A DNA stretch of 64,000 bases from a virus, in IMG/VR virus record IMGVR_UViG_3300028844_006431, positions 20,111-84,110 of that record. The stretch is one strand, 5' to 3'. The first letter of the stretch is position 1, and each line of letters starts with the position of its first letter. Below, one piece after another: positions 19,107-63,999 of the stretch. The notes under the pieces were generated by a model, which was given only the letters and a program-made list of their open reading frames with translations, was not told the DNA's origin and did not search any database. Position numbers and translations under genes: made by a program.

Positions 19107-20972
19107 ATGAAAATATATCATATTGATAACTACCTTTCTGAACTGGACTCAAATCTCTTCTTTCGTCATAAAAAATATACTTCTCTGATTAACTCACCCA
19201 CTGGCACTGGCAAGACAGAAACAATCTTTGACCGAGCAAGAACTCAAGAGAAAGTGATTGTTGCTTTTCCTTACACTTCTCAGGTCATTCAACAGGCAAA
19301 GAAGAACCCTGGCTTTCAGTGCTTGTATGATGATGCTCAATACTCAACTGAGAAGACTCAGAGAATTATTTGTACCTATGACAAGCTTGTCACCTTAATT
19401 AATCATGACGTCAATCTGAATGAATATGAACTTCATCTAGATGAATGCCACAATCTCTATGTTGCTGCTGACTATCGAGATCGAGTCATGTACTATATTG
19501 CGTCCTCCATACGCCAGAGGGCTTACCAGCAGGTCTTTTGTTACTCTAGCACATATGACTCGAAGTATCTCAGTAACTATCTGGTGATAGACCAGCACTT
19601 TCGTATTCAGAAGAATCTTCCTGTTCGGGATGATGTTACTTGTGTTCACCTTAACAATCAGAAAATCACGCTCAATGAATCACTCTATGACTATATTCAG
19701 AAAAATGTCTCAGTCGATGAAAAAATTCTCATCTATCGCAATAACAAAAGTGAAAACACCGCCTTGGCTGATCTTCTGGAAGATGCGGGTATATCGACAA
19801 CGCTTGTGGATAGTGATTGCAAAAATGAGCAGGAGACAATTGAGCTTCTGGAGAACGAAATGCTTTCAAAGCAAACAAAGGTCCTCATTACCACATCAAT
19901 GTTGACAGAAGGAATCAATCTGCTGAACAATAACATCACTCAGATTCATTACATTGATAAGAGTAAGAGTGCTGCTACCATTCGTCAATTCGCAAGTCGG
20001 GCGAGGAACTCTACTCATAAAACTTTCGTCTGGTACAAGAAGGATGAGACACTTCATGTGAAGAAGGATATCTTTGAAGAGTGGATTGATTTCATTGAAA
20101 CATCTGGTCGGTTGGAGAAAAACTACAACAGTCTTGTAGCTGACACGCCAGATCATCTGAAACATAAACATATCAATCACTTGCTTCGTGGTTCTTCCAT
20201 GTATGACCGAACCTGGAGACAGAAAGGTTTTCGTAATGTCAGTGGTGAGATCAAGATTGATTACACCAGAATTGCGAATTATTTTTACGAGTTAGATGTG
20301 ACTAATCAAAGTCACAACTCATATATTCTGGGTGAAGAACTGGAGAAGTATGATTTTGATGTGTATTATATCAATTACGATACATCTAATATTGATCAAT
20401 CTGATATTGATTCCTCAAAAGAAAAGTCCAGAACTGTTCGTGCGATTCGTAAAGCGGAACGTCTTGAAATTCTTGAGGGTTATCGAGATGACCAGATTGA
20501 TGTGAGAAAGCGATTGAATGTTTTGCTGAGAAAAAAAGGCAAGACAGCCAATGAAAATCGTGAAATCAAGATTGCGAAAGAATGGATTGCACTGAAGAAG
20601 AGTAATGTGGCGGAAGATGATATCATTCAAATCATTCGTAAAAATAACACAAACAAAGCCAAGTTTCGTTTGTCATTAAAAGAACAGCAGAAGAATGATC
20701 TACTCTACAGTGAACTTTCATCACTCATTCATTTGAATCAAAGATATGATGTAACTGAGAGAAGTAATCTACTTGTAATTGCTGAGAAAAACATTCGAGA
20801 CAAACATTCAATTGAACTAAATATAAGGAAAACAAAAAACAATGAGATTCATGGTAAGATTAGTAAAGGTATTTTTAATACCTTGTTTAATACAGAGTCT
20901 CATGTCTACAGCGGCAAGCATTCAATCTCAGTCACAAACTTTGATCCGCTGTTCTTTAAAACTACTAACTGA
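19107..20972 (+). CDS. Superfamily 2 (DExH) helicase, possibly origin-binding-protein-like
   Basis: Walker A SPTGTGKT, Walker B LDECH, motif III SST, motif V TTSMLTEGINL, motif VI QFASRAR. Confidence 0.85.
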   Translation: MKIYHIDNYLSELDSNLFFRHKKYTSLINSPTGTGKTETIFDRARTQEKVIVAFPYTSQVIQQAKKNPGFQCLYDDAQYSTEKTQRIICTYDKLVTLINHDVNLNEYELHLDECHNLYVAADYRDRVMYYIASSIRQRAYQQVFCYSSTYDSKYLSNYLVIDQHFRIQKNLPVRDDVTCVHLNNQKITLNESLYDYIQKNVSVDEKILIYRNNKSENTALADLLEDAGISTTLVDSDCKNEQETIELLENEMLSKQTKVLITTSMLTEGINLLNNNITQIHYIDKSKSAATIRQFASRARNSTHKTFVWYKKDETLHVKKDIFEEWIDFIETSGRLEKNYNSLVADTPDHLKHKHINHLLRGSSMYDRTWRQKGFRNVSGEIKIDYTRIANYFYELDVTNQSHNSYILGEELEKYDFDVYYINYDTSNIDQSDIDSSKEKSRTVRAIRKAERLEILEGYRDDQIDVRKRLNVLLRKKGKTANENREIKIAKEWIALKKSNVAEDDIIQIIRKNNTNKAKFRLSLKEQQKNDLLYSELSSLIHLNQRYDVTERSNLLVIAEKNIRDKHSIELNIRKTKNNEIHGKISKGIFNTLFNTESHVYSGKHSISVTNFDPLFFKTTN

Positions 20973-20982
20973 ACAATGAAAG

Positions 20983-21516
20983 ATGACTTTAGAAGAAGCA
21001 TTTGAATATCATCACGAAGAAAATTTACCTTACTGTTTCAATCTTTTTCAACCTTACAGTAAAAAATTCTACGAGTTTTTTGCTGAAGCAAAAGAAAGGA
21101 AATTCACACATGAAGATGATCGAGAACTTTTTGAAGAAACAGATTTAGGTGAATTCGATACCTTTGAAGGTGCCTGGGTGCCTCTTGACTTACCTATTCT
21201 TTGTGAATCAAAGTCAGAGTATCAAGGTAAGAAAGTTGAACTGAACAAGCCAAAGCGAGGTGGTGACAAGAAATTCTATGTCTACACTCGCAATCCGCAA
21301 ACAGGGAAGGTTATCAAAGTTTCTTTTGGCGCTGAAGGTGGTGGTGGAAGTTTGAAAGTTAAGTTTAATGACCCAAAGGCAAGAAAAAACTTTGCTAGCC
21401 GTCATGATTGTGCGAATAAGAAAGATAAAACCAAGGCATCCTTTTGGAGTTGCAGGTTGCCTCGGTACGCTGCAAAACTTGGTATGAGTGTGAACAATCC
21501 AGGAGGCTATTGGTAA
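20983..21516 (+). CDS. Conserved phage hypothetical protein (probable internal head protein)
   Basis: EYQGKKVELNKPKRG..KKFYVY..VSFG..ARKNFASRHDC..WSCR, a motif familiar from T4-like marine phages. Confidence 0.75.
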   Translation: MTLEEAFEYHHEENLPYCFNLFQPYSKKFYEFFAEAKERKFTHEDDRELFEETDLGEFDTFEGAWVPLDLPILCESKSEYQGKKVELNKPKRGGDKKFYVYTRNPQTGKVIKVSFGAEGGGGSLKVKFNDPKARKNFASRHDCANKKDKTKASFWSCRLPRYAAKLGMSVNNPGGYW

Positions 21517-21776
21517 ATGAACACTTTGTTCAGAATGGAAACATTCGAACAATTGAAAATGATCCAAGCCATTTCATTTGGCATCAAGATGAATTTGACC
21601 GCATCATCTCTTTAATTTCAGGCGACAAATGGTTTCTACAAATGGAACATCAGTTGCCTGAAAAAATAGAGAAAAACAAAAACATGTATATACAAAAAGA
21701 AGTCTGGCATCGTGTGTTCTGTACAAATACGAATGCTGAGAATCATCTAATCATTTCAATACAAGACATTCAATGA
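21510..21776 (+). CDS. Small cupin-like phage protein
   Basis: WHQD..R and WFLQM..LP..YI.K.VWHRV motifs. Probable TTG start after AGGAGG; start position uncertain. Confidence 0.6.
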   Translation: MVNEHFVQNGNIRTIENDPSHFIWHQDEFDRIISLISGDKWFLQMEHQLPEKIEKNKNMYIQKEVWHRVFCTNTNAENHLIISIQDIQ

Positions 21777-22852
21777 AATCTTTTAAAGAATTACACGAAG
21801 AATATCTCGAGGAAAAAAAATATCCTAAACTGAAACAACGCAAAGATGTTAGTTCAAAAACTAAAAGCGGTAAAGATAAGTCAACACCTGAAAAAAATTA
21901 TCATGGTTTGAGCAAAGGTACCGCACAGGAAAGAGAGGATCATTGGAAGAAGCAGAGAGAAAAACATCATAGTGACTCTTCAGCTTACACACCCGCACCT
22001 GGTGATAAAAACGCCAAGACAAAGCCTTCCAAATATACAAAGGCCTATCATAAAAAATATGGTGACCCTTCAAAGGAAAAGAAGAAGGTCAGCGAAGATG
22101 TTGAAGGAGTGAACATACCATCCGAAACTTCAAAAGAAATTGAAAGACTTTCTAAATCATATAATGTAGAAGTATCTGAAATTGTAAAGCTTTATCGTAA
22201 ACTTTACGAAAGATATCGAATTATGATGAGAACTGGTAACAACGCAAGTGTTCCGAATGAAAAAGAAGCAAAGATTCTACAGGGTTCAACAATGTCGGCT
22301 ATGAAGAAAGCTTTAGAGAAAAAAGATGATGATGTAAATTCTGAAATAAAAAGAAGAAGAATGGGTGGTCAAGAACGACCTGTTCGAGAACCTCAGGATG
22401 ACCGTTTCGCTGAAATGAAAAGACGTTCACAAATGGAGTCAACTGAAAGTTCAATTAAAGAACGTGTTTTAAATGAATATTATGAAACTGTTTTTGAGGT
22501 AAATCCTGTTGAATTATATGGTGAATATTTGGAAGAAGGAAAAGCCGATACAGGATTAGCCGCTAAAGCCAAAAAAAGTGGCATATCTTTAAGTACGTTA
22601 AGAACTGTATATAATCGAGGGATGGCAGCATGGCGTGGTTCACATCGACCTGGAACTACACCTCAACAATCGGCGAATGCTAGGGTAAATTCCTATATTG
22701 CAAAAGGTAAAACTTGGCACACTGCCGATGCAGACTTACATGGCGGAAAAAAGAAAGATAATAAAACCAAGAAAAAGGGATCATCCACAAAACAATCAAC
22801 TAAACCACGTACTAAAACCGGAAGAGGTGGAAGGACTAAATTACATCCATGA
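21773..22852 (+). CDS. Basic internal head protein (DUF5824-like) with a capsid-targeting-like N-terminus
   Basis: MKSFKELHEEYLEE, KTKPSKYTK, and KAKKSGIS...VYNRGMAAW..HRPG..QQ..ARVNS. Confidence 0.7.
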   Translation: MKSFKELHEEYLEEKKYPKLKQRKDVSSKTKSGKDKSTPEKNYHGLSKGTAQEREDHWKKQREKHHSDSSAYTPAPGDKNAKTKPSKYTKAYHKKYGDPSKEKKKVSEDVEGVNIPSETSKEIERLSKSYNVEVSEIVKLYRKLYERYRIMMRTGNNASVPNEKEAKILQGSTMSAMKKALEKKDDDVNSEIKRRRMGGQERPVREPQDDRFAEMKRRSQMESTESSIKERVLNEYYETVFEVNPVELYGEYLEEGKADTGLAAKAKKSGISLSTLRTVYNRGMAAWRGSHRPGTTPQQSANARVNSYIAKGKTWHTADADLHGGKKKDNKTKKKGSSTKQSTKPRTKTGRGGRTKLHP

Positions 22853-23355
22853 AAACAAAATGTTGTGTGCCAACTGTAATACACCATATAAAACCACGTT
22901 ATATTGGTGGTACAGATGAGCCTGAAAATTTGATAGAACTAACATACAAAGAACATGCCACAGCACATTTTTTATTGTGGCTACAATACCATGATGAAAG
23001 AGATTGGTTAGCATGGCGAGGCTGCGAAGGACTTATCGGTAAAGAACAAATACATAAAGAGATATGTTCAATCGCTGGTAAGAAAAGTTACGCTGAAGGA
23101 AAAGGAATACACGATAAGACAAAAAAATCTGAATGGGCTAGAATGGGCGCAGCCGCAGCATATGCAAAACACAAAGAAAAGATAGATGCCCAGCTGAGAG
23201 AGAATGCCCGTAGAGGAGCAGAACTTGGACTTGGTGGGCATGAAGCAGGTAAATGGATTTGGATAACTAACGGACAAGAGAGTAAGAAAGTTTTGAAAGC
23301 AGAACAACTACCAGACGGATGGCGCAGAGGTCGTCATAGTCGAAAGGCAGCATGA
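22849..23355 (+). mobile_element. Free-standing HNH homing endonuclease
   Basis: HHIKPR..GGTDEPENLIELT..EH..AH, with a C-terminal WITNG..PDGWRRGR DNA-binding motif. Overlaps both neighbours by ATGA. Confidence 0.85.
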
Positions 23356-24563
23356 AAGCATTTAAACAATTCGTTATTGAAGAACAACTTTTAACTGAAG
23401 GTGGTAATTCACCTTTTATTAATCGTGAAACAGGACAAGTTCTAGGTCGTGCTGAACGTATGAACATGGCATCTGTAAATCGTAAACAGATTCAGGAGAA
23501 GTTGCTGACCATGCTTCAGGAACTTAACGTTAAATTCGGTAAAATGTTTGGCAAACCCTTATGGCCGTCTTGGTCAATTGTTGCGTCTGGTGAAGCTTTT
23601 AACGGTTCCAGTGAGCAATTTTTTGACAGCTCGATCTCTGATGCGGACTTCAAGAAATATAAGAAAACTGTTGGTGATATGGACCTGACAATCCCTCATG
23701 GTAATCTTGGACCTTTGTTTGACTTACTTGCTACTCTCGAAAATAAAAAGCTTGCTGGAGGAACTTTTATCTACAAGGGACAGAATAAAAAGAAACAGCA
23801 GGGACATCAAATCAATTCAATCTTTCAATTACAAAATCCAAAACTCAATCTTCAAATTGATTTTGAAGGTGTGAACTACGAGAAAGATAAACCAGACGCC
23901 TTTGGTAAGTTTTCACATAGTTCAAACTGGGAAGATATGAAAGCAGGTCTGAAAGGTCTGGGTCATAAACTTTTACTGATGAACATGGCAAGAGCCTTAT
24001 CCGCAATGCATAATGTAGTTGTGCTGACACCTTCCTCAACTGCTGAAAACCCTAAAGTTTCGGAAGCAGAAACAGAAAAGTTTCCCACGAACTTAGCATT
24101 CTCTGTTGATAGTGGCGCTCGTTTTAAATACGAGCCAGTGATGAAAGGTGAAACGCAATTAGAGATCAATGGTAAAAAGGCTTACAAGAAACTTCCGACA
24201 AAGAATAGTAAATACACAACAAATCTAAAAGAAATTTTTTATATGATGTTTTCAAAGAAACCATCAGAAACGGATCTGATTAAGTTTCGAAGTTTTGTAG
24301 GTATTCTTTCATTGCTCAAAGAAAAGAAAATAAAAAAACAAGTAATTATAGACATCTTTGAAAACCTTCTTACAAAAAGTATGTTCTGTAAACATTGTCA
24401 GGGAACAGAAGTAAATAATCCAGATGGTGATCGAAATACAAAAATGATCATTGTCAATAAAATGGTATCAGAATTTTCGTATCTCAAGCCGATTCTGGAC
24501 AAAGCTCAACCGATGATTGAAAAGTATTATCAAAACTATAAAGAAGTAAAGGTAGATTCATGA
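23352..24563 (+). CDS. Putative Pol-beta-superfamily nucleotidyltransferase with a capsid-targeting-like N-terminus
   Basis: MKAFKQFVIEEQLLTE, then FNGSS...GDMDL (GS..DxD) and a third carboxylate in LQIDF. Confidence 0.65.
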   Translation: MKAFKQFVIEEQLLTEGGNSPFINRETGQVLGRAERMNMASVNRKQIQEKLLTMLQELNVKFGKMFGKPLWPSWSIVASGEAFNGSSEQFFDSSISDADFKKYKKTVGDMDLTIPHGNLGPLFDLLATLENKKLAGGTFIYKGQNKKKQQGHQINSIFQLQNPKLNLQIDFEGVNYEKDKPDAFGKFSHSSNWEDMKAGLKGLGHKLLLMNMARALSAMHNVVVLTPSSTAENPKVSEAETEKFPTNLAFSVDSGARFKYEPVMKGETQLEINGKKAYKKLPTKNSKYTTNLKEIFYMMFSKKPSETDLIKFRSFVGILSLLKEKKIKKQVIIDIFENLLTKSMFCKHCQGTEVNNPDGDRNTKMIIVNKMVSEFSYLKPILDKAQPMIEKYYQNYKEVKVDS

Positions 24564-26173
24564 TGACTTTTCGCACTTTCGTAGTCAGAAAAAATTACAT
24601 AACAGAAGCCGCCTCAGGTAGACTTGATACAAGTATTGTAAATGCGGACAAAGCTTTCAAGAAGAAAGTTGAGTTCTTCTTTGTCTTAGATAAAACAGGT
24701 AATACACTCAATCCTAGAGAATATACGATTGAAGAAAAGTTTGATGGTGTCAAGTTGAATCTTTTTCGCAATAATCAAGATTTTGATCCAAAAGATTTTT
24801 CAAAGAATTGGATTGTTTCTTATAAGAACAATATTATGCATCCTGATGAATTCAAATCAGTTTCTGCTAAAAAATCAAAAGAGCAGGGAATTGGTATCAC
24901 TCAGTATCGTTTAGTGTTTGATCACTTAAGAAAGCATCATCGTCACACAAAAAGTATACCAAAGAACACTGAATTCTTTATTGAATACATGATGAAGAAA
25001 CCGACTCTCACTCGAGAGTATGAAACAAATCATTCGATGGTTCTGATTGGTTATGCTCATAATATGAAAATTGATAAGCAATCTGATTTTCGTATCTACA
25101 CTAAAGAAACTACTTTAGAGAATAAAGAAAATGCTCACTATGCGGAGATGCTTGGAATTGAAAGCGGTGCGGTAGTTTTCGAAGGATCAATTGATTCTTA
25201 TAATGACCTACATTCAGGTGCTAAGAATAAATCTTTGAAATCAGCTATTTCAAAGAATAAAAAGTTTCTACAGAAATTATATAAGGACCGTAATTGGGAT
25301 GAACTTTATACTCTGGTCAAAGAAATATTTCTTGAAGTGAAAAGTGTCTATGGTGGTAGTAAGACAGAAGGTGTTGTAATCAAAGATCATTTGACAAAAA
25401 AGACATTCAAATTCTTACAAGATGACCAACATGATAAAGATGTTCGAGCAAATGTCAAATCAAATTATAAAATGAACGATGAAGAAGAAAATAATTATTA
25501 TACAAAACTTCGTGAAATTGCTACTGAAATTTTGAATGACCTTGACCTTTCACAATCTTTCAGTGAAGTGATGAAAGAAATTTCAGCTAAAGTACATCGA
25601 TATAAACTACCTACCAAAATTCACACAAAGAAAAATATACATCAAGTTCGTGAAGACTTACATTTGACTACGAAGATGAAGTTTGAAAAACTGAAAGAAG
25701 GTTGGGCTGGTGTTGTAGGCAAGTTCCGAATTGTTACAAATGAACATGTCAAGATGATTGAATCCGCTTTTGACAAAGGTTATAAAGGTGTGACTGTAAT
25801 GATCGTTGCGGGTTCAAGAGATCCTGGATTAGCAAATGCGAGTAAAGAAATTCTTCAAGAAATCTTCAAAGGAAAGCCAATTGAATTTGTGATCGCAAAA
25901 ACAGGTAACATTGTTTCTCTTGAAAGAAAAACTCGTAATCCAATTGTAGCCTATATATGTGGACCAGATCGTGAATTAGATTATGAAAATCAACTCAAGT
26001 CAGCAAACAGTGATGCGATTGTTGATACTTACGATGGTGGTAAACGAGGAGAAGTTTCTGCGACTCAAGCAGAAGAAGCATTGAACAGTAATAACTATGG
26101 CAAGTTAGCCAAAATTGTACACGAAATTGCACTTAAACAAATTGATAAATGGTCTAAGTTTATAAAGAAATAG
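24560..26173 (+). CDS. Fusion of an ATP-dependent ligase-like (KxDG) domain and a HIGH/cytidylyltransferase-like domain
   Basis: EEKFDGVK (motif I), EFFIE, EGVVIK, FKF. C-terminal VGKFRIVTNEH, CGPDR and VSAT resemble the GRF.P.T.GH / GSDR / SAS pattern. Confidence 0.6.
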   Translation: MMTFRTFVVRKNYITEAASGRLDTSIVNADKAFKKKVEFFFVLDKTGNTLNPREYTIEEKFDGVKLNLFRNNQDFDPKDFSKNWIVSYKNNIMHPDEFKSVSAKKSKEQGIGITQYRLVFDHLRKHHRHTKSIPKNTEFFIEYMMKKPTLTREYETNHSMVLIGYAHNMKIDKQSDFRIYTKETTLENKENAHYAEMLGIESGAVVFEGSIDSYNDLHSGAKNKSLKSAISKNKKFLQKLYKDRNWDELYTLVKEIFLEVKSVYGGSKTEGVVIKDHLTKKTFKFLQDDQHDKDVRANVKSNYKMNDEEENNYYTKLREIATEILNDLDLSQSFSEVMKEISAKVHRYKLPTKIHTKKNIHQVREDLHLTTKMKFEKLKEGWAGVVGKFRIVTNEHVKMIESAFDKGYKGVTVMIVAGSRDPGLANASKEILQEIFKGKPIEFVIAKTGNIVSLERKTRNPIVAYICGPDRELDYENQLKSANSDAIVDTYDGGKRGEVSATQAEEALNSNNYGKLAKIVHEIALKQIDKWSKFIKK

Positions 26174-26178
26174 GTACT

Positions 26179-26778
26179 ATGAATGTGTTGATTGAAATTT
26201 ATGGAACACCAAAAGAAATTGTTGTTGGAGAAATCAATGAAGAACAATATGAATTCTGGAAAGAAAGAGAACATGACCTTTTGTATGGATCTGAAGGTGA
26301 ATTTCTTTCTTTCCAAGAATATTGTTTAGGAAAATATAATGAATATCAAGTCTATGAAGATTATGATTTTATTCTTGATGATTGGTCAGATGTAAATGAT
26401 GTTTATACGAATATAGGATTTTTTCAAGATGAAAACCTTAATGAAATTGAAGTCAAGTTTACACAGGTTGACTCTGAAAATTCTTTGACTATATCATATA
26501 CAGAACCTAAAATTGAAACATTCGTTGAAATTGATGAACCTGATGTTGGTTCTTTTCATTTCATAGGACAAGAAATTTATGAAAAACAATTATGTTTTTC
26601 TGCTACTGTAAATGAAGAAGATTTGAATGAAAGTATAGTCAAAGAACTATCTTTTCAGCAAGATATCATTTATGATCAAAAAATAATCACAGAGGTTTCT
26701 TTTCGAAATGTAAGTTTATTTAATAAAGCTAAAATAAATTCATCAGTGATTGAACAAAAATTCTATTTGAAACCTTAA
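26179..26778 (+). CDS. Acidic hypothetical protein
   Basis: 199-aa ORF in the operon, rich in Glu/Asp and aromatic residues. Confidence 0.65.
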   Translation: MNVLIEIYGTPKEIVVGEINEEQYEFWKEREHDLLYGSEGEFLSFQEYCLGKYNEYQVYEDYDFILDDWSDVNDVYTNIGFFQDENLNEIEVKFTQVDSENSLTISYTEPKIETFVEIDEPDVGSFHFIGQEIYEKQLCFSATVNEEDLNESIVKELSFQQDIIYDQKIITEVSFRNVSLFNKAKINSSVIEQKFYLKP

Positions 26779-60452: not shown

Positions 60453-62339
60453 TTATCCTTCTTTGAGTGTTTTTTTCCAGCTATTTGTGTGATTCTGTCC
60501 CTCCCAATCAAGACCTCCAATGTACTTCAATAAAATCTTCTTGATCTTATCTCGACTTGGTCCCTCTTCAATAGCATTATCTTTTTGTAAAACCTTCACT
60601 ACTTTTTCACCAATCTCAAACTGAATTCTTTCATAAGATGCTTTGATTGGATAAGCTTGAGAATAGGGTGAGGGATTACCCACATCAGGTGTTGCTTCTC
60701 CGTACAGCCTTTCAAGACAATAAGCCAAATTCTTTTCGTCATTTTCTTGACTCAAATTTCTCTTGAGCATCCTGAGTACATGGGCATAAGGATGCCACTC
60801 CATGATCACCTTTTCGATTAGACCGTGATATTTTTTATCAAGCCGTTCATCCTCAATATAAACATATGTGGCGTCTGCGATTTTTGTTTTGATTGAAATC
60901 AAGACTTCTTTGTCTTGAAAACTTCTCTTAATAATATCTGCCCAAGACTGTTGAAGTTCTTTCGGTATGTCATGGTCAAATGATTCAAAGAAAGGATTGT
61001 TTTCAGCTTTGTCATCGAAGACATCCATATGACGAGCATCTTTTGTAAAAGCTTTTATAAAAACTTTCGCATTTGGTTTGAAATCAATAAGTGCCTTAAT
61101 CAGATCAGGTTTCTTCGCAACAATCTCTACCATTGTTTCGTTTCCGATCTTCAATCCTGTCTTGTGTAATTCTTGACGAATAACTTTTGGTGGCTTACGA
61201 ACGGCATTTACCATTGCTGCGAGAATTTCTTTTTGACTTACATCCACAAGATACTTCGCATTCTTAAAGGTATCCATCAGAATATCTCGTTGTATAACCG
61301 GCGGTAACTTTACTTTCATAGGATGTTTGCTCAAAAGATTTCCTGAATCACCCTTATAATTTGTCAGTAATACATCTTTGACGGCATCTCCTTTTACGCC
61401 AAGCTCTGCAAGCATGTGTTCAGTTACCTTGTCGCCACCAAGTTTGTTGATTTTACCTGTTGTGATTAACTTCTTTGCTTTACCTGACTCTGCCATTTCT
61501 TGTTTCAGCGGTCCGAAATTATAGTCTTTGTTCGGTATGGCATCAAGTGTTTTCCATCCGTAACGTGATTTACCCGTGAAGAACACACACTGAGTTCTTT
61601 CCGCAGGATGAATGATACCTTTGTTATCTGGATCACAAACTGAATCATAGAAGAATTTCTTACCAGCACCTCTTGTCCAAAGTAATGCCCAGAGAGTAGC
61701 CTTTGGTTCATATTTCTTGAATGTTTCATAAGATGCATTTCGTCCAGCAAGTGCTTCAACATTATTCCAATTCGATTCAGCATAAACAAATGAAATTACT
61801 CTTGTAATATTCCATAACATGCCCGCATAAGATTTCTCTCGAGCACCCTTTTGTGCTTGAGCAATTGCTGAAGAAATGATTCTTGGAAAGATTTTAGCAT
61901 CTTTGTTTGACCATTTCTTTTTCATCTGAATCAACACATCATGTGTCAAATCTTTGATATCTCGTTGATACTTAGCACCATCATAATCATCAGTCAAATT
62001 GAGATGTTTGCCTTTAGGCAATCGTTGAATGAGTCCAATCCAAGGCATGTCACCCGCAAAAGGCACATCAAATTCTTTTGCATCATCATCTGTTTCTTCA
62101 TAAGCATAAACAATCGGATAAGTATAAATGCCGTTTGGTGTGTTATATTTTGATTTCGTATTCAAACCAATCTGAACAGTTTCATCTGCTGTATCTGTAA
62201 AAGCATTTGCATTCTTGACAAAAGAAATGAACATGTCTCCTCGCTTACGATAAGGAGATAACTTCTTGACTGGATTCTCTTTTGGATTTTTCTCTGGATT
62301 TCTTCTTGCTTCAACAAGAAATTGATTGAATGATTTCAT
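60453..62339 (-). CDS. Putative encapsidated protein, possible ADP-ribosyltransferase-like fold
   Basis: MKSFNQFLVE N-terminus, YNTPNGIYTYP, YDSVCD..GIIHPAERTQCVFF. Confidence 0.55.
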   Translation of the reverse strand: MKSFNQFLVEARRNPEKNPKENPVKKLSPYRKRGDMFISFVKNANAFTDTADETVQIGLNTKSKYNTPNGIYTYPIVYAYEETDDDAKEFDVPFAGDMPWIGLIQRLPKGKHLNLTDDYDGAKYQRDIKDLTHDVLIQMKKKWSNKDAKIFPRIISSAIAQAQKGAREKSYAGMLWNITRVISFVYAESNWNNVEALAGRNASYETFKKYEPKATLWALLWTRGAGKKFFYDSVCDPDNKGIIHPAERTQCVFFTGKSRYGWKTLDAIPNKDYNFGPLKQEMAESGKAKKLITTGKINKLGGDKVTEHMLAELGVKGDAVKDVLLTNYKGDSGNLLSKHPMKVKLPPVIQRDILMDTFKNAKYLVDVSQKEILAAMVNAVRKPPKVIRQELHKTGLKIGNETMVEIVAKKPDLIKALIDFKPNAKVFIKAFTKDARHMDVFDDKAENNPFFESFDHDIPKELQQSWADIIKRSFQDKEVLISIKTKIADATYVYIEDERLDKKYHGLIEKVIMEWHPYAHVLRMLKRNLSQENDEKNLAYCLERLYGEATPDVGNPSPYSQAYPIKASYERIQFEIGEKVVKVLQKDNAIEEGPSRDKIKKILLKYIGGLDWEGQNHTNSWKKTLKEG

Positions 62340-63442
62340 CCTTCTTTCTTTTGAATTTCTTTTAGATAATCTTTCAACACACTCTTACTCGCATCGAGTG
62401 TAGCATAACGCAAAACTTTAGTTGGAAAGTTGAATTGCTTACGATAGGCGTCAACATCTTCTCCCTTATTTAAAGCACTCGTAGCAATAAACGCATAAAC
62501 AATTTCAAAATTACCAACTACAATCTCATCGTAAGTGTCTTGTTTTGTTTTTGTTCGCATTCTTTTTGCTTGAACTTTAGGCCAAGATAAAATATATTCA
62601 GTGAAAGCCTTTTTCCATTCAGGCTTGCTAGCGATAATTCTTTCTGCTCCGATTACATACTTTCGTATATATTGTTGTTTGACTGAGCCAGGTATGTCAT
62701 ATGGACGAAGAGTTTCCCAGCGTTGTTCACCTTTAGTCTTAGGAGCAACTCGTTTATCTTCATATTCTTTTTTCAAAGTTTCAATCATATCTCTTTTCAT
62801 ATCAACTAATTCTTGTGTCATGTTTTCATAATTTTTGATGAGCGCCATGAACTTAGCATTACTTTCTTTATTCCAATTTCGTATACCGCTACGAAAAACG
62901 GTAGCTGGCCGAAGACCACCATTTGTTGTGATATCTAACAAACGTTTACCCTGTTTATCAACTTTACTCCATAAATCTTTTTGTAGACCAGCAACTGCTT
63001 GACCTTTGACAACCGCAATAATTCCACCATTACTGTCAGACCAGATTCCTGATGTCATATCACCATACGGATCAACTGTATAAGCTGAGATTTGTTTTGT
63101 TCTTTTTTTCTGAATCTTTACAAGATTTTTAAGACCTTGAGAACCTGTTGAGTGACAGGCGAGTAATTGTATCTCTCCCGAAACTCTCTCAATAAATCTT
63201 GAGTTGAGTGGTAACTGAAAGGATCGATCTGTTTGTTTTTGAAAAACATATTGATTTCGTTCTTTCTTAAACCCCTCAGACCTTATATCGTCTTCATCAT
63301 CTTCATCATAACTTTTACTTTCTTTACCATACATATCTGAAGTCATGAGTAAGTCAGCATCATAGAAGAGATGGTCAAACAATGACCTTTGCCATTGAAC
63401 TTGTTCAGATAAGAATTCTGTAAATTCAGTGTATGTTTTCAT
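62336..63442 (-). CDS. Putative encapsidated protein, possible ART-like (H-S-E) fold
   Basis: MKTYTEFTEFLSE N-terminus, ACHST, QISAYT, YDEIVV. Confidence 0.55.
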   Translation of the reverse strand: MKTYTEFTEFLSEQVQWQRSLFDHLFYDADLLMTSDMYGKESKSYDEDDEDDIRSEGFKKERNQYVFQKQTDRSFQLPLNSRFIERVSGEIQLLACHSTGSQGLKNLVKIQKKRTKQISAYTVDPYGDMTSGIWSDSNGGIIAVVKGQAVAGLQKDLWSKVDKQGKRLLDITTNGGLRPATVFRSGIRNWNKESNAKFMALIKNYENMTQELVDMKRDMIETLKKEYEDKRVAPKTKGEQRWETLRPYDIPGSVKQQYIRKYVIGAERIIASKPEWKKAFTEYILSWPKVQAKRMRTKTKQDTYDEIVVGNFEIVYAFIATSALNKGEDVDAYRKQFNFPTKVLRYATLDASKSVLKDYLKEIQKKEG

Positions 63443-63999
63443 GGTGCGAAACCCCACTCTGCTAAACTGTCACCTGAGGTGAAGATTTGACTTGCCTTAA
63501 CTTTCTTTGAGAGTATTCTATATTTATTTCTTAGATGATCTTTACCATGTTCTTTTGCATAGTTTCTCACAATTGTCACCCAATCACCAGGATTGATCTC
63601 TGAAATGTTTTCTACCTTCTTGTCACTCTTCTTCACCTTCTCTTCTTCATTCCCCAACCATTCATAATACTTTTTCTTACCCATTTTATGAAATTCAGAT
63701 TCAAATGCGGGATAGGGCTTGGCTCTCTTCAACCATAGTGCCTGAGCTTTCTGGAGGTCTGCCAGCAGGTCTTCTTTGGTCTGTTGATATGGAACAGCAC
63801 GATAGATGGTAATCAATTTATTTGGCTTATTTCGGTATCCGTTGACAATCAGAGCAGCATCTTTCTCATTCTGAGCATACTCATGCCAGCGGTCATAGTA
63901 GTCTTTAGGATATACTTCATTGTGTGTCATGTCATGAAGAGGTGCTCCTTCTTTGCCAGCAGATTGATGCTCACCTTTGTAGTCTTCTGAAATGTTTTT
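63439..63999 (-). CDS. ART-like protein, N-terminus truncated by the window end
   Basis: The frame stays open to the window end (KNISEDYKGEHQSAG..APLHDM). Motifs IYRAVP, INPGDWVT..YAKEH, DSLAEWG. Confidence 0.55.
   Translation of the reverse strand, partial: KNISEDYKGEHQSAGKEGAPLHDMTHNEVYPKDYYDRWHEYAQNEKDAALIVNGYRNKPNKLITIYRAVPYQQTKEDLLADLQKAQALWLKRAKPYPAFESEFHKMGKKKYYEWLGNEEEKVKKSDKKVENISEINPGDWVTIVRNYAKEHGKDHLRNKYRILSKKVKASQIFTSGDSLAEWGFAP

Follow-up and report, generated by a model that had tools for sequence, protein, structure and literature searches.

Two overlapping genes of an uncultured T4-like phage are, in our best explanation, which we hold with slightly better than even confidence, the source of head-loaded, injected enzymes of a polynucleotide break-repair kit. 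That some polynucleotide is repaired seems a little more secure than the kit as a whole. The genes lie in the window, i.e. the whole stretch of 64,000 nucleotides that was analysed, which belongs to IMG/VR record IMGVR_UViG_3300028844_006431, an 84-kb fragment estimated to be 38% complete. Their features are as follows.

23352..24563, + strand: gene 1, Pol-beta-fold nucleotidyltransferase of 403 aa (ORF; match to PHROG 19290)
23352..23399, + strand: gene 1 leader, a predicted capsid-targeting propeptide
24560..24563, + strand: ATGA in which the stop of gene 1 and the start of gene 2 overlap (sequence)
24560..26173, + strand: gene 2, ligase and HIGH fusion of 537 aa (ORF; match to PHROG 27149)
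24560..24607, + strand: gene 2 leader, capsid-targeting-like, with a candidate protease site
24617..25699, + strand: gene 2 ligase domain, residues about 20-380 (invariant columns; VIA-align; Foldseek)
25700..26170, + strand: gene 2 HIGH-type domain (PPAT/NMNAT-like), residues 381-537 (VIA-align; domain profile; conservation)

Both ORFs, and every motif quoted for them in a sequence-only reading of this DNA, are present at these + strand coordinates and in the translations. The three distinct nucleotidyl-transfer folds which that reading had proposed (Pol-beta, ligase/ATP-grasp-type and HIGH) can be seen in the AlphaFold2 models, and searches with these models found the Pol-beta family and T4 Rnl2 (Foldseek) and NMNAT/PPAT (VIA-align). 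The TGA of gene 1 (24561-24563) overlaps the ATG of gene 2 (24560-24562), an arrangement consistent with translational coupling. No clear T4-type late promoter could be identified for the block of genes 1 and 2, which speaks against our best explanation; TATAAATA was counted 3 times in the window, where 4.4 would be expected, and never upstream of the two genes.

The catalytic set of gene 1 consists of G85-S86, D109-x-D111 (D109-M-D111) and D170-x-E172, with Q168-I-D170 in the translation, and G85, D109, D111, D170 and E172 are invariant in an alignment of 47 relatives. Its AlphaFold2 model has a mean pLDDT of 91.1, falling below 50 solely in the leader (residues 1-15), and includes a C-terminal helical bundle at about residues 328-397. 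Gene 1 matches PHROG 19290 (function unknown) with E 4e-53, and a Pfam scan found no family at E<=0.1. The identification of gene 1 as RlaP (PF10127) was rejected because PF10127 gave no match at this threshold, and a six-frame search of the record with PF10127 at E<=10 left gene 1 unmatched. The gene 1 family comprises 773 clusters at E<=0.001, and the Atlas clusters closest to it are all viral. Foldseek against the PDB returned Pol beta, lambda and PolX with a probability of 0.99, yet with TM scores of 0.26-0.38. VIA-align superposed gene 1 on Pol beta (4rpx; Z 7.6, rmsd 4.1, 173 aligned) and on ASFV PolX (5hr9; Z 6.8, 164 aligned out of a 176-residue chain), Z values of 6.8-7.6 being, per the tool, frequent even between unrelated models. 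By these weak matches of the model, the nearest structures appear to be family X DNA polymerases and not RNA-specific enzymes, a point against our best explanation.

The N-terminal part of gene 2 is an Rnl2/Rnl5-like ligase domain. It carries ligase motif I, K60-x-D62-G63 (K60-F-D62-G63), as well as E138/E142, E270-G271 (EGVVIK) and K284, and K60, D62, G63, E138, E142, E270, G271 and K284 are invariant in an alignment of 56 relatives, in which T393, H396 and S500 of the HIGH-type domain are at least 90% conserved. Because of these invariant or conserved columns in the alignments of relatives, the motifs of gene 1 and gene 2 are not chance occurrences. In the AlphaFold2 model of gene 2 (mean pLDDT 89.7; below 50 solely in N-terminal residues 1-24) the ligase domain has a helical C-terminal part at about residues 293-380. 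VIA-align matched the domain to NgrRnl (5cot; Z 10.5, 191 aligned), T4 Rnl2 (2hvq; Z 10.5, 190 aligned), REL1 (1xdn; Z 9.7) and Trl1-LIG (9r3w; Z 9.5, 229 aligned across residues 17-362), and the Foldseek matches of gene 2 include T4 Rnl2 and a Candida tRNA ligase. At the sequence level gene 2 matches PHROG 27149 (function unknown) with E 2.5e-58, precomputed PF09414 and PF01467 are present on its relatives, and Pfam RNA_ligase falls just under the cut-off in relatives (e.g. 25.8 vs 27 bits). Nick-sealing Rnl2/Rnl5-type RNA ligases (T4 Rnl2, Naegleria NgrRnl, T. brucei REL1) and the ligase domain of fungal Trl1 share with gene 2 the nucleotidyltransferase fold and the motifs KxDG, EG and K, but lack its C-terminal HIGH-type adenylyltransferase. 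The profile of the ligase domain has no match to solved ligases at E<=1, which speaks against our best explanation.

The linkage of the two genes was followed in 81 loci (80 IMG/VR loci and Vibrio phage Va1). In 65/81, relatives of gene 1 and gene 2 are found no more than 8 kb apart, which supports the coupling proposed earlier and shows that related phages tend to carry both genes; the other 16 loci have no nearby gene 1 relative, and 8 of these have less than 700 nt of upstream sequence. In 29/81 loci the genes keep this order and strand and either overlap or are separated by no more than 60 nt, and 12 loci contain a single fused ORF of 958-1350 aa, LIG(-HIGH)-...-POLB. Further fusion orders are KIN-LIG-HIGH (L029), LIG-HIGH-KIN (P0029), KIN-POLB (P0120) and POLB...HIGH (P0200). 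Among cultured phages, each gene was found in 15 Campylobacter and 6 Vibrio records, with 19 records common to both, and in IBB_35 the genes are on different contig records. In the Campylobacter phages they are about 64 kb apart, which counts against our best explanation.

Further enzymes accompany the pair. A Pnkp-type polynucleotide kinase is present in 18/81 loci, its profile matching the C. thermocellum Pnkp kinase domain (4gp7; E 6e-12), T4 Pnk (E 2.4e-5) and Pnkp1 (E 8e-5), and a metallophosphoesterase with every metal ligand invariant is present in 21/81. Together with genes 1 and 2, these are the components of a kit that heals and seals breaks. In Vibrio phage Va1, an annotated tRNA nucleotidyltransferase gene is located about 3 kb upstream and an AAA_33 kinase nearby. 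From the list of functions suggested earlier (end repair by tailing and ligation, protein nucleotidylation, or a role in signalling nucleotides or NAD), the kinase and metallophosphoesterase partners and the fusions in multiple orders favour end repair. The window's own 84-kb record contains no kinase, metallophosphoesterase or prohead protease, so that the evidence for the healing partners comes from relatives alone, a point against our best explanation.

The same parts could serve DNA. Such a repair kit would mend the genome that the phage injects, be it damaged inside the virion or nicked at entry, before phage genes are expressed; gene 1 would fill short gaps or extend 3' ends, perhaps with ribonucleotides, and the Rnl2/Rnl5-like ligase would seal nicks bearing a 3'-ribonucleotide. 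In the PDB, gene 1 best matches Pol beta, mu, lambda, TdT, bacterial PolX and ASFV PolX, across palm and thumb, those of its BFVD matches that bear a name are family X polymerases of giant viruses and, as a lead, PF14792 (DNA_pol_B_palm) occurs in 13% of one Atlas cluster near the fused proteins. Packaging beside the DNA would suit genome mending, and DNA strand-break repair likewise combines a kinase and a phosphoesterase with a polymerase and a ligase. Rnl5-type ligases close duplex nicks having an RNA 3'-OH strand, according to the available text of PMC4408790 and PMC7261155. However, the Pol X matches stay below Z 8 with the low TM scores given above, the gene 1 model is without an 8-kDa or helix-hairpin-helix DNA-binding domain, gene 1 has no Pfam Pol X match, and the ligase domain lacks an OB domain and is nearer to RNA ligases (Z 10.5) than to the best DNA ligase among the matches listed (Z 8.9). 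The kinase is closest to the RNA-repair Pnkp kinase, and some related loci already possess a distinct ATP-dependent DNA ligase (PF01068). We consider genome mending unlikely on this evidence.

The C-terminal domain of gene 2 contains the motifs G387-K-F-R-x-x-T393-x-x-H396, G468-x-D470-R471-x-x-x-Y475 and S500-A-T502; the translation reads G387-KFRIVTNE-H396 and G468-P-D-R471. A domain alignment of 50 sequences shows no variation at H396, D470, Y475 or S500 and conservation of 90% or more at G387, T393, G468 and R471. The suggestion that a degenerate HIGH motif makes this domain a mere ligand sensor finds no support, since T393-x-x-H396 aligns onto the T-x-G-H of phosphopantetheine adenylyltransferase (PPAT) and the residues just named are conserved, a pattern which fits a working nucleotide site. 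VIA-align gave Z 16.9 (rmsd 2.3, 148 aligned) for M. jannaschii NMNAT (1f9a), Z 15.6 for PPAT (4nah) and Z 15.3 for NadM (2qjo), and the domain profile matched PDB sequences of PPAT (E 4e-9) and NMNAT (E 1.2e-8). The compact 155-residue HIGH fold (Z 15.6-16.9) and the T/H-x-x-H and S-x-T nucleotide-binding motifs are thus common to CoaD (PPAT), archaeal/NadM-type NMNAT and gene 2. In contrast to these enzymes, the Gly of (T/H)xGH is unconserved, and the gene 2-type domain is always fused to or beside a ligase/Pol-beta domain; it was found in 60/81 loci, every time within an ORF bearing a ligase match. It is predicted to be an ATP- or NTP-using transferase. In characterised members of the HIGH superfamily the NMP is known to go to an oxygen of a phosphate, sulfate or carboxylate, which makes a hydroxyl a less likely acceptor than a terminal phosphate group or some small metabolite that carries a phosphate. 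RNA repair leaves the fusion of this transferase to the ligase unexplained, which is a point against our best explanation.

It could be argued that the domain is a true NMN adenylyltransferase that rebuilds NAD+ after injection, e.g. against NAD-depleting defences, with the remaining domains processing related nucleotides. An archaeal NMNAT is indeed its top structural match, NadM and NadR match too, one relative is named 'predicted kinase/NMN adenylyltransferase' in its source, and phage NMNAT fusions with kinase or Nudix domains are known (available text of PMC7824862). However, the profile matches PPAT no worse than NMNAT, the first His of HxGH is replaced by Thr as in PPAT, and the kinase that is fused or adjacent most resembles polynucleotide kinases, the NadR ribosylnicotinamide kinase being absent from its best 60 matches. 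The invariant ligase lysine motif and the Pol-beta partner would be left unaccounted for, and a few dozen injected enzyme molecules would be unlikely to restore a metabolite pool. A role of the module in nucleotide or NAD metabolism therefore seems improbable.

The case for delivery in the virion comes from the N-termini. Gene 1 starts with MKAFKQFVIEEQLLTE, then GGN; its residues 4 and 7 are aromatic, and V-I-E10 and L-T-E16 are candidate protease sites. Gene 2 starts with MMTFRTFVVRKNYITE, then AAS; its residues 4 and 7 are both F, and the candidate site is I-T-E16, followed by A. According to the available text of PMC9026906, the T4 gp21 prohead-protease motif is L/I-X-E and the CTS has 10 residues; a leader ending in (L/I)-x-E has, by its sequence, this cleavage motif. 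Among 91 distinct gene 1 family members with GGN inside the first 70 residues, 37, Vibrio phages among them, start with M-GGN and have no leader, and 50 have a leader of 8-40 aa, with E at -1 in 48/50 and L/I at -3 in 45/50. Since many relatives are leaderless, packaging would be optional for the gene 1 family, which counts against our best explanation. Gene 2 relatives either start at (M)LDISI or have a leader with (I/L/V)-x-E-(A/S/G) a few residues before LDISI. Leaders co-occur across gene 1, gene 2 and the kinase, and T4-type head and tail genes (gp15, gp20, gp21 protease, gp23 and terminase) are among the neighbours. The capsid-targeting-like N-termini noticed earlier are thus conserved and behave like removable T4-type propeptides, and both gene products are probably packaged in the head and injected with the DNA. 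The T4 capsid-targeting system, as far as PMC9026906 is available, likewise uses a short N-terminal leader in which residues 4 and 7 are key and processing occurs at L/I-x-E; its prohead protease strips the leader and the cargo is injected alongside DNA. In T4 the cargo is small basic proteins or an ADP-ribosyltransferase, whereas here it would be two enzymes that act on nucleic acids, 45 and 60 kDa in size, with packaging predicted from sequence. The CP21 phage paper names neither gene 1 nor gene 2.

Three other ORFs of the window were annotated.

21773..22852, + strand: lysine-rich DUF5824 protein of 359 aa, with CTS-like leader MKSFKELHEEYLEE and C-terminal DUF5824
22849..23355, + strand: HNH homing-endonuclease-like ORF of 168 aa, flanked by the DUF5824 gene and gene 1
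60453..62339, - strand: distant ORF of 628 aa, with close T4-type leader MKSFNQFLVE, then A

The first product matches Pfam DUF5824 (E 5e-22) and, in its C-terminal part only, PHROG 3041 'cytidyltransferase' (E 1e-11), and is a probable further packaged protein within the same block. The second matches PHROG 655 homing endonuclease (E 6e-14), with Pfam HNH at 18.8 bits, under the 21.4 cut-off, and is probably a mobile insertion outside the module. The 628-aa ORF has no family match; a relative of it adjoins the module in locus L040.

Modification of host proteins, with gene 1 or the HIGH domain AMPylating or nucleotidylating a host target at entry, has precedents in packaged T4 Alt, which ADP-ribosylates RNA polymerase (available text of PMC9026906 and PMC5512222), and in Pol-beta-fold enzymes of phage polyvalent proteins predicted to target proteins (PMC5512222, likewise), but it is very unlikely given the constant partners (a full-motif polynucleotide ligase, a Pnkp-type kinase and a phosphoesterase) and the lack of any match to a protein-modifying family.

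Literature searches found no paper with a characterised function for this combination, as the sequence-only reading had supposed; in general terms, however, the association of a Pol-beta enzyme with an RNA ligase has already been described, as RlaP (available text of PMC12776372 and PMC7824862, the latter a review of phage RNA-repair kits). RlaP (PF10127; with Rnl- or RtcB-type ligases, including T4 NrdC.11) is likewise a Pol-beta enzyme tied to an RNA ligase and end-healing enzymes, and is described in these texts as adding 1-2 NMP onto damaged RNA 3' ends ahead of ligation. Unlike RlaP, gene 1 is unmatched by PF10127, its extended fold best matches family X polymerases, and it often has a capsid-targeting leader; packaging of RlaP is not reported in the same portions of the two sources. 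The bacterial RNA repair systems Pnkp/Hen1 and Pnkp1-Rnl-Hen1 and the tRNA repair pathway of T4, Pnkp with Rnl1, likewise combine a 5'-kinase, a phosphoesterase and an ATP-dependent ligase, and the CthPnkp phosphoesterase is calcineurin-type, as in the related loci (available text of PMC2190708). The module differs from Pnkp/Hen1 systems in lacking the Hen1 methyltransferase and in having a ligase-fused HIGH transferase and a Pol-beta enzyme, and from Pnkp systems in that its parts are separate or differently ordered in fusions, the window fragment holding the tailing and sealing enzymes only. T4 Pnkp and Rnl1 are produced post-infection, whereas the leaders here point to virion delivery.

In the break-repair explanation that we prefer, the leader of about 16 residues on each protein would direct entry into the prohead core and the prohead protease would cut it off after (L/I)-x-E, as the sequences suggest, giving mature starts at GGN... 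(gene 1) and about AAS...LDTSI (gene 2); the enzymes would then exit the capsid with the genome. In many relatives the Pnkp-type 5'-kinase and the metallophosphoesterase would first heal 5'-OH and 2',3'-cyclic/3'-phosphate ends. Gene 1, with its two-metal D-x-D...D site, would put one or a few nucleotides onto a 3'-OH end, and in the gene 2 ligase ATP would adenylylate K60, from which AMP would pass to the 5'-phosphate before the break is sealed. The likeliest substrate would be host or phage RNA, and we tentatively propose, at somewhat short of an even chance, that the kit targets RNA specifically, above all tRNA cleaved by defence ribonucleases.

The window belongs to an uncultured T4-like myovirus; among its PHROG matches are a T4-type DNA polymerase, UvsX, a DnaB-like helicase, a primase and a ribonucleotide reductase, together with a head-closure protein and collar-domain tail fibres. 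Its IMG/VR record is an 84-kb fragment with an estimated completeness of 38%. Genes 1 and 2 are located within a tight gene block on the plus strand (19107-26778), in which the stop codon of gene 1 and the start codon of gene 2 overlap in an ATGA.

Features of the gene block around genes 1 and 2
19107-20972, plus strand: SF2 helicase, first gene of the block; Helicase_C match, DEAD and ResIII below cut-off
21773-22852, plus strand: lysine-rich protein of 359 aa with a C-terminal DUF5824 domain
22849-23355, plus strand: HNH homing-endonuclease-like ORF of 168 aa, between the DUF5824 gene and gene 1 and overlapping both at its start and stop
23352-24563, plus strand: gene 1, 403 aa, Pol-beta-fold nucleotidyltransferase
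24560-26173, plus strand: gene 2, 537 aa, ligase-type domain fused to a HIGH domain

All of the motifs quoted for these two genes in an earlier, sequence-only reading are present in their translations. Both proteins belong to PHROG families of unknown function. A Pfam scan gave no family for gene 1 at E ≤ 0.1 and a chance row only for gene 2, phmmer against PDB sequences returned nothing for gene 1 and chance rows only for gene 2 (E > 0.8), and blastn with the 2.8-kb region as query gave no match among 50,697 phage records. The T4 late promoter TATAAATA is present in three copies in the window, against 4.4 expected, and none of them precedes gene 1 or gene 2; a CTAAATA is located 166 nt before the ORF at 20983.

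Co-occurrence of the two genes in related phages, on which the sequence-only reading had staked its two-gene module, was borne out. Among cultured phages, 21 records contain gene 1 and 21 contain gene 2 (for each gene, 15 of Campylobacter Firehammervirus type and 6 of Vibrio), and 19 of these are common to both; phage IBB_35 splits the two genes over different contig records. They are about 1.3 kb apart in the Vibrio phages and about 64 kb apart in the Campylobacter phages. Scanning of IMG/VR yielded 100 viral contig stretches that encode a relative of gene 2; 80 were retained and, with Vibrio phage Va1, make up a set of 81 loci. In 65 of the 81, the gene 2 relative has a gene 1 relative no more than 8 kb away. 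The arrangement of the two genes could be counted in the 80 loci where the gene 2 relative was placed by BLAST.

Arrangement of gene 1 and gene 2 relatives (80 loci)
Gene 1 ahead of gene 2 on the same strand, overlapping or at most 60 nt apart: 29
Gene 1 ahead of gene 2 on the same strand, further apart: 21
Single fused ORF of 958-1350 aa, ligase N-terminal and Pol-beta C-terminal: 12
Other arrangements: 2
No gene 1 relative: 16, of which 8 have less than 700 nt of upstream sequence

Further fusion orders were observed, in which the ligase (LIG), HIGH, Pol-beta (POLB) and kinase (KIN) domains are joined as LIG-HIGH-POLB, POLB...HIGH, KIN-LIG-HIGH, LIG-HIGH-KIN and KIN-POLB. In the fused proteins of about 1300 aa from L070-L081, the stretch of roughly 400 residues that separates the HIGH-like motif from the Pol-beta domain has no family match, and the Atlas neighbours of these proteins are viral clusters only, with CTP_transf_like labels. 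The other members of the block are less constant. Relatives of the helicase are present in only 2 of the 81 loci, and a functional link between helicase and module is therefore not supported. Since relatives of the HNH ORF occur in just 3 of the 81, it looks like a mobile insertion into a block of capsid-tagged genes.

The Pol-beta superfamily is recognised by hG[GS], followed by DxD and a third carboxylate on a later strand, according to an excerpt of PMC12776372. Gene 1 contains G85-S86, D109-x-D111 and D170 with E172, and G85, D109, D111, D170 and E172 are invariant in an alignment of 47 relatives; the distance of 22 residues from GS to DxD is above the usual. The AlphaFold2 model (pLDDT 91.1) has a Pol-beta nucleotidyltransferase core, so that the fold which had been proposed from the motifs is seen together with its invariant catalytic set. 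Structural alignment of this core (approximately residues 38-200) gives Z of 5.5-7.6 with Pol beta, cGAS-like receptors, OAS, TUTases and poly(A) polymerases. Matches to cGAS-like receptors, OAS and TUTases are limited to the core, and the top matches in the model comparison are family X polymerases, in which both palm and thumb are covered. Of 1.84 billion cluster representatives (clusters at 50% identity), the gene 1 profile matched 773 at E ≤ 0.001; with E ≤ 1e-30 as threshold, 514 were matched. The Atlas clusters near gene 1 are viral only, and the relatives' profile against PDB sequences returned a single chance row (E 0.21). One relative, P0258 (2078 aa), combines the gene 1 domain with a second NTP_transf_2 domain, Amidoligase_2 and DUF6934 in an architecture like that of polyvalent proteins.

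Two more specific identities were considered for gene 1. For a family X DNA polymerase speak the matches to Pol beta 4rpx (Z 7.6, 173 aligned) and to ASFV PolX (Z 6.8, 164 aligned of a 176-residue chain), both below the Z of 8 under which a match is not decisive by the tool's own note. Foldseek gave a probability of 0.99 with Pol X chains, yet TM of only 0.26-0.38. Among predicted viral structures, the named matches that follow the uncharacterised phage proteins are giant-virus family X polymerases. The model is without the N-terminal helix-hairpin-helix or 8-kDa DNA-binding domains, and PF14792 was seen solely as a 13% label on an Atlas cluster near the fused proteins. The scores are too weak for gene 1 to be assigned to family X, and a Pfam Pol X match is lacking as well. 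The second candidate was RlaP, a name said to have been given by Burroughs and Aravind in 2016. Gene 1 keeps one RlaP-like trait, its conserved neighbourhood link with an RNA ligase (65 of 81 loci, fused in 12). It has no match to PF10127 at E ≤ 0.1, which led us to reject RlaP, and a six-frame search of the window's record with PF10127 returned nothing at E ≤ 10 while the control genomes matched.

ATP-dependent polynucleotide ligases share the motif I lysine (KxDG), motif III, motif IV (EG) and motif V (K). In 56 relatives of gene 2, residues K60, D62, G63, E138, E142, E270, G271 and K284, which supply these motifs, are invariant. In the AlphaFold2 model (pLDDT 89.7), residues 20-293 match the nick-sealing RNA ligases NgrRnl (Z 10.5), T4 Rnl2 (Z 10.5) and REL1 (Z 9.7), and residues 17-362 match the ligase domain of fungal Trl1 (Z 9.5). 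PF09414 gives no match in gene 2 itself and 17-26 bits in the relatives scanned (cut-off 27), and a precomputed PF09414 label is attached to four gene 2 relatives. When PDB sequences were searched with the full gene 2 profile, PPAT and NMNAT chains were the only matches, with no ligase at E ≤ 1. Motifs, modelled fold and near-threshold PF09414 scores in the relatives together suggest that residues 20-380 constitute an RNA-ligase-type polynucleotide ligase, in agreement with the ligase-type domain claimed for gene 2 from its sequence.

The HIGH superfamily is characterised by (H/T)xGH and ISxT motifs. In gene 2 these correspond to T393-N-E-H396, with conservation of T and H but not of G, and to S500-A-T502. 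Residues 381-537 of the model superpose on archaeal NMN adenylyltransferase 1f9a (Z 16.9, rmsd 2.3, 148 aligned), PPAT 4nah (Z 15.6) and NadM (Z 15.3), which places the HIGH-like domain recognised earlier in the NMNAT/PPAT fold. A profile of 50 HIGH-domain sequences detected PPAT (E 4e-9) and NMNAT (E 1e-8) among PDB sequences, and gene 2 relatives score above the PF01467 threshold of 21 bits (one of them with 28.7 bits). An NMN adenylyltransferase proper carries HxGH with both histidines; the first of these is Thr in the HIGH domain of gene 2.

The sequence-only reading had regarded the motif as degenerate and the domain as perhaps a ligand sensor, which our alignment does not favour. H396, D470, Y475 and S500 are invariant among the 50 sequences, and T393-x-x-H396 aligns with T-x-G-H of PPAT (T-L-G-H). 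Therefore, the domain looks functional and not decayed, and this conservation argues against a dead sensor. A 'cytidylyltransferase', ORF154, is listed in the virion proteome of cyanophage S-CREM2 according to a portion of PMC10665884. Homology between ORF154 and the HIGH domain is unsupported, since tblastn with the domain at E ≤ 1 matched no cyanophage and all 21 records were from Campylobacter or Vibrio phages.

Profile searches of the 81 loci revealed the domains that accompany the module.

Domains found in the 81 loci
Ligase: 80
Pol-beta: 66
HIGH: 60
Metallophosphoesterase, about 185 aa: 21
Kinase, about 175 aa: 18
Unknown family, about 450 aa: 11

Pfam matches mark the kinase as AAA_33/Zeta-like. 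Loci L030 and L031 are examples in which kinase and phosphoesterase are both present. Its profile has 4gp7 as the best match listed (E 6e-12), followed by PSTK, T4 Pnk and Pnkp1. We take 4gp7 to be the kinase domain of C. thermocellum Pnkp (CthPnkp), although its PDB molecule name reads 'Metallophosphoesterase'. In most of the aligned kinases (e.g. L030:7468-7986) the Walker A motif reads GGxxSGKN, with Asn in place of the usual Ser/Thr. The possibility that kinase and HIGH domain form a NadR-like pair for NAD salvage was discarded, as the best listed match of the kinase profile is the CthPnkp kinase, with PSTK and T4 Pnk also near the top; no NadR kinase is present among the 60 kinase-profile matches listed. 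The phosphoesterase is a homologue of Aquifex aq_1665 and all of its metal ligands are invariant.

Published RNA repair systems comprise a kinase, a phosphoesterase, a ligase and a Pol-beta enzyme, and damaged RNA is extended by RlaP with one or two NMP, as stated in sections of PMC7824862 (for the systems) and PMC12776372 (for both). Kinase and phosphoesterase, the Pnkp-type part of such a kit, are present in relatives, and neither was found in the window's fragment. Searches of this 84-kb, 38% complete record also found no prohead protease and no RlaP. In the Va1-like Vibrio phages (for Va1 itself, L001, 735-10926), genes 1 and 2 are leaderless and share a block with an AAA_33 kinase, detected by Pfam, and a gene annotated as tRNA nucleotidyltransferase; these phages look like carriers of a non-packaged version of the kit. 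As for the target, ligase and kinase lean towards RNA as substrate, and the modelled fold of gene 1 leans weakly towards family X DNA polymerases.

Both proteins begin with a leader resembling the capsid-targeting sequence (CTS) of T4 internal proteins, and two further leaders of this kind were seen in the window.

CTS-like leaders in the window
Gene 1 protein (23352-24563, plus strand): MKAFKQFVIEEQLLTE then GGN; F4, F7; L-T-E16
Gene 2 protein (24560-26173, plus strand): MMTFRTFVVRKNYITE then AAS; F4, F7; I-T-E16
DUF5824 protein (21773-22852, plus strand): MKSFKELHEEYLEE
628-aa ORF (60453-62339, minus strand): MKSFNQFLVE then A, very near the T4 CTS pattern; no Pfam or PHROG match

In T4, the prohead protease gp21 cleaves after L/I-X-E, and the CTS of IPIII consists of the first 10 residues, of which 4 and 7 matter for targeting and 8 and 10 for processing, according to an extract of PMC9026906. 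The gene 1 and gene 2 leaders are at least about 10 residues long, with Phe at positions 4 and 7 and an L/I-x-E site, and they are the sole low-confidence parts of the two AlphaFold2 models. In the gene 1 family, 91 distinct sequences have GGN within the first 70 residues (8 others are without it). A leader of 8-40 residues is present in 50 of the 91, with E at -1 in 48 and L/I at -3 in 45, and another 37 begin at M-GGN. These leaderless relatives thus start exactly at the predicted cleavage point. Campylobacter Firehammerviruses such as CP220, CPt10 and F379 are cultured relatives with a leader, their gene 1 homologue opening with MKLSELMFILE before GGN. The same holds for the gene 2 family, where (I/L/V)-x-E-(A/S/G) stands shortly before a conserved LDISI. 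The capsid-targeting-like N-termini noted from the window's sequence are confirmed, and conserved among the leader-bearing relatives.

Leaders on gene 1 and gene 2 relatives
Gene 1 with leader, gene 2 with leader: 13 loci
Gene 1 without, gene 2 with leader: 16 loci
Gene 1 without, gene 2 without leader: 11 loci
Gene 1 with leader, gene 2 without: 0 loci

The leader is frequent on the kinase and absent from the phosphoesterase. T4-type head and tail genes are the usual neighbours of the module. A gp21-type prohead protease is present in 2 of 5 related records searched and lies within 8 kb of the module in 10 loci; none was found in the window's own record. From these sequence features, the gene 1 and gene 2 proteins are predicted to be packed in the phage head. 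Neither gene is named in the publication on phage CP21.

Similar tags were observed on other genes. DUF5824 also forms the C-terminus of PHROG 3041 (678 positions), annotated 'cytidyltransferase', which may point to another connection of DUF5824 with HIGH-type enzymes. A 488-aa relative of the 628-aa ORF lies a few genes from the module in L040, and the ORF next to it (62336-63457) has a relative beside the module in L031. At L040:3124-9787, at least five genes start with MKT(F/Y)xEF or MKSFNEY, including the kinase, an unknown 425-aa family, gene 1 and several small ORFs; the group resembles a cluster of capsid-tagged proteins of the kind encoded by the T4 ip genes. In L014, L015, L042 and L044, many small genes and the gene 2 relative share a leader M-I/L-R/K-E-A/I-I/L, which may be a second type of targeting tag; the gene 1 relative of this clade begins at M-GGN.

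It is conceivable, though we consider it improbable, that the three nucleotidyl-transfer domains work together as a single injected machine for repair, with the HIGH domain acting on the terminal phosphate of a broken polynucleotide, a chemistry undescribed for its superfamily. The domain could adenylylate the 5'-phosphate directly, use pyrophosphorolysis to undo dead-end adenylylation, or add or take off an NAD-type cap. An NMNAT/PPAT-like site could perform these three reactions because A5'pp5'N-RNA shares the linkage of NAD. If so, the ligase would gain a built-in priming or proofreading partner. The acceptor of the HIGH domain, once found, could reveal a new step of polynucleotide end processing.

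Phage kits for polynucleotide repair in which a Pol-beta enzyme accompanies the ligase are already known, and so are capsid-targeted internal proteins. Our literature searches found no paper on the module, while supplements and further papers may hold more. What is new is that the Pol-beta family differs from RlaP, that the ligase is regularly joined to a PPAT/NMNAT-like domain (HIGH in 60 of 81 loci, ligase in 80), that all three domains are fused in some phages, and that predicted capsid-targeting leaders are present. The module thereby holds two enzyme families without a Pfam model, the non-RlaP Pol-beta enzyme and the ligase with a PPAT/NMNAT-like domain, and it is widespread, with 773 clusters in the gene 1 family and gene 2 relatives on 100 viral contig stretches. 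These enzymes could be of use as reagents.

Where PMC7824862 treats RNA repair by phages, the enzymes concerned, T4 Pnkp and Rnl1, are ones that the phage makes after infection; in contrast, the gene 1 and gene 2 proteins are predicted to be injected ready-made. If they are indeed packed in the head and injected, these phages would deliver finished repair enzymes on infection, and such enzymes would join anti-restriction proteins and Alt as a new class of injected cargo. Repair would then be possible before phage gene expression, for example against RNA-cutting defences that are already active, or on a damaged genome.
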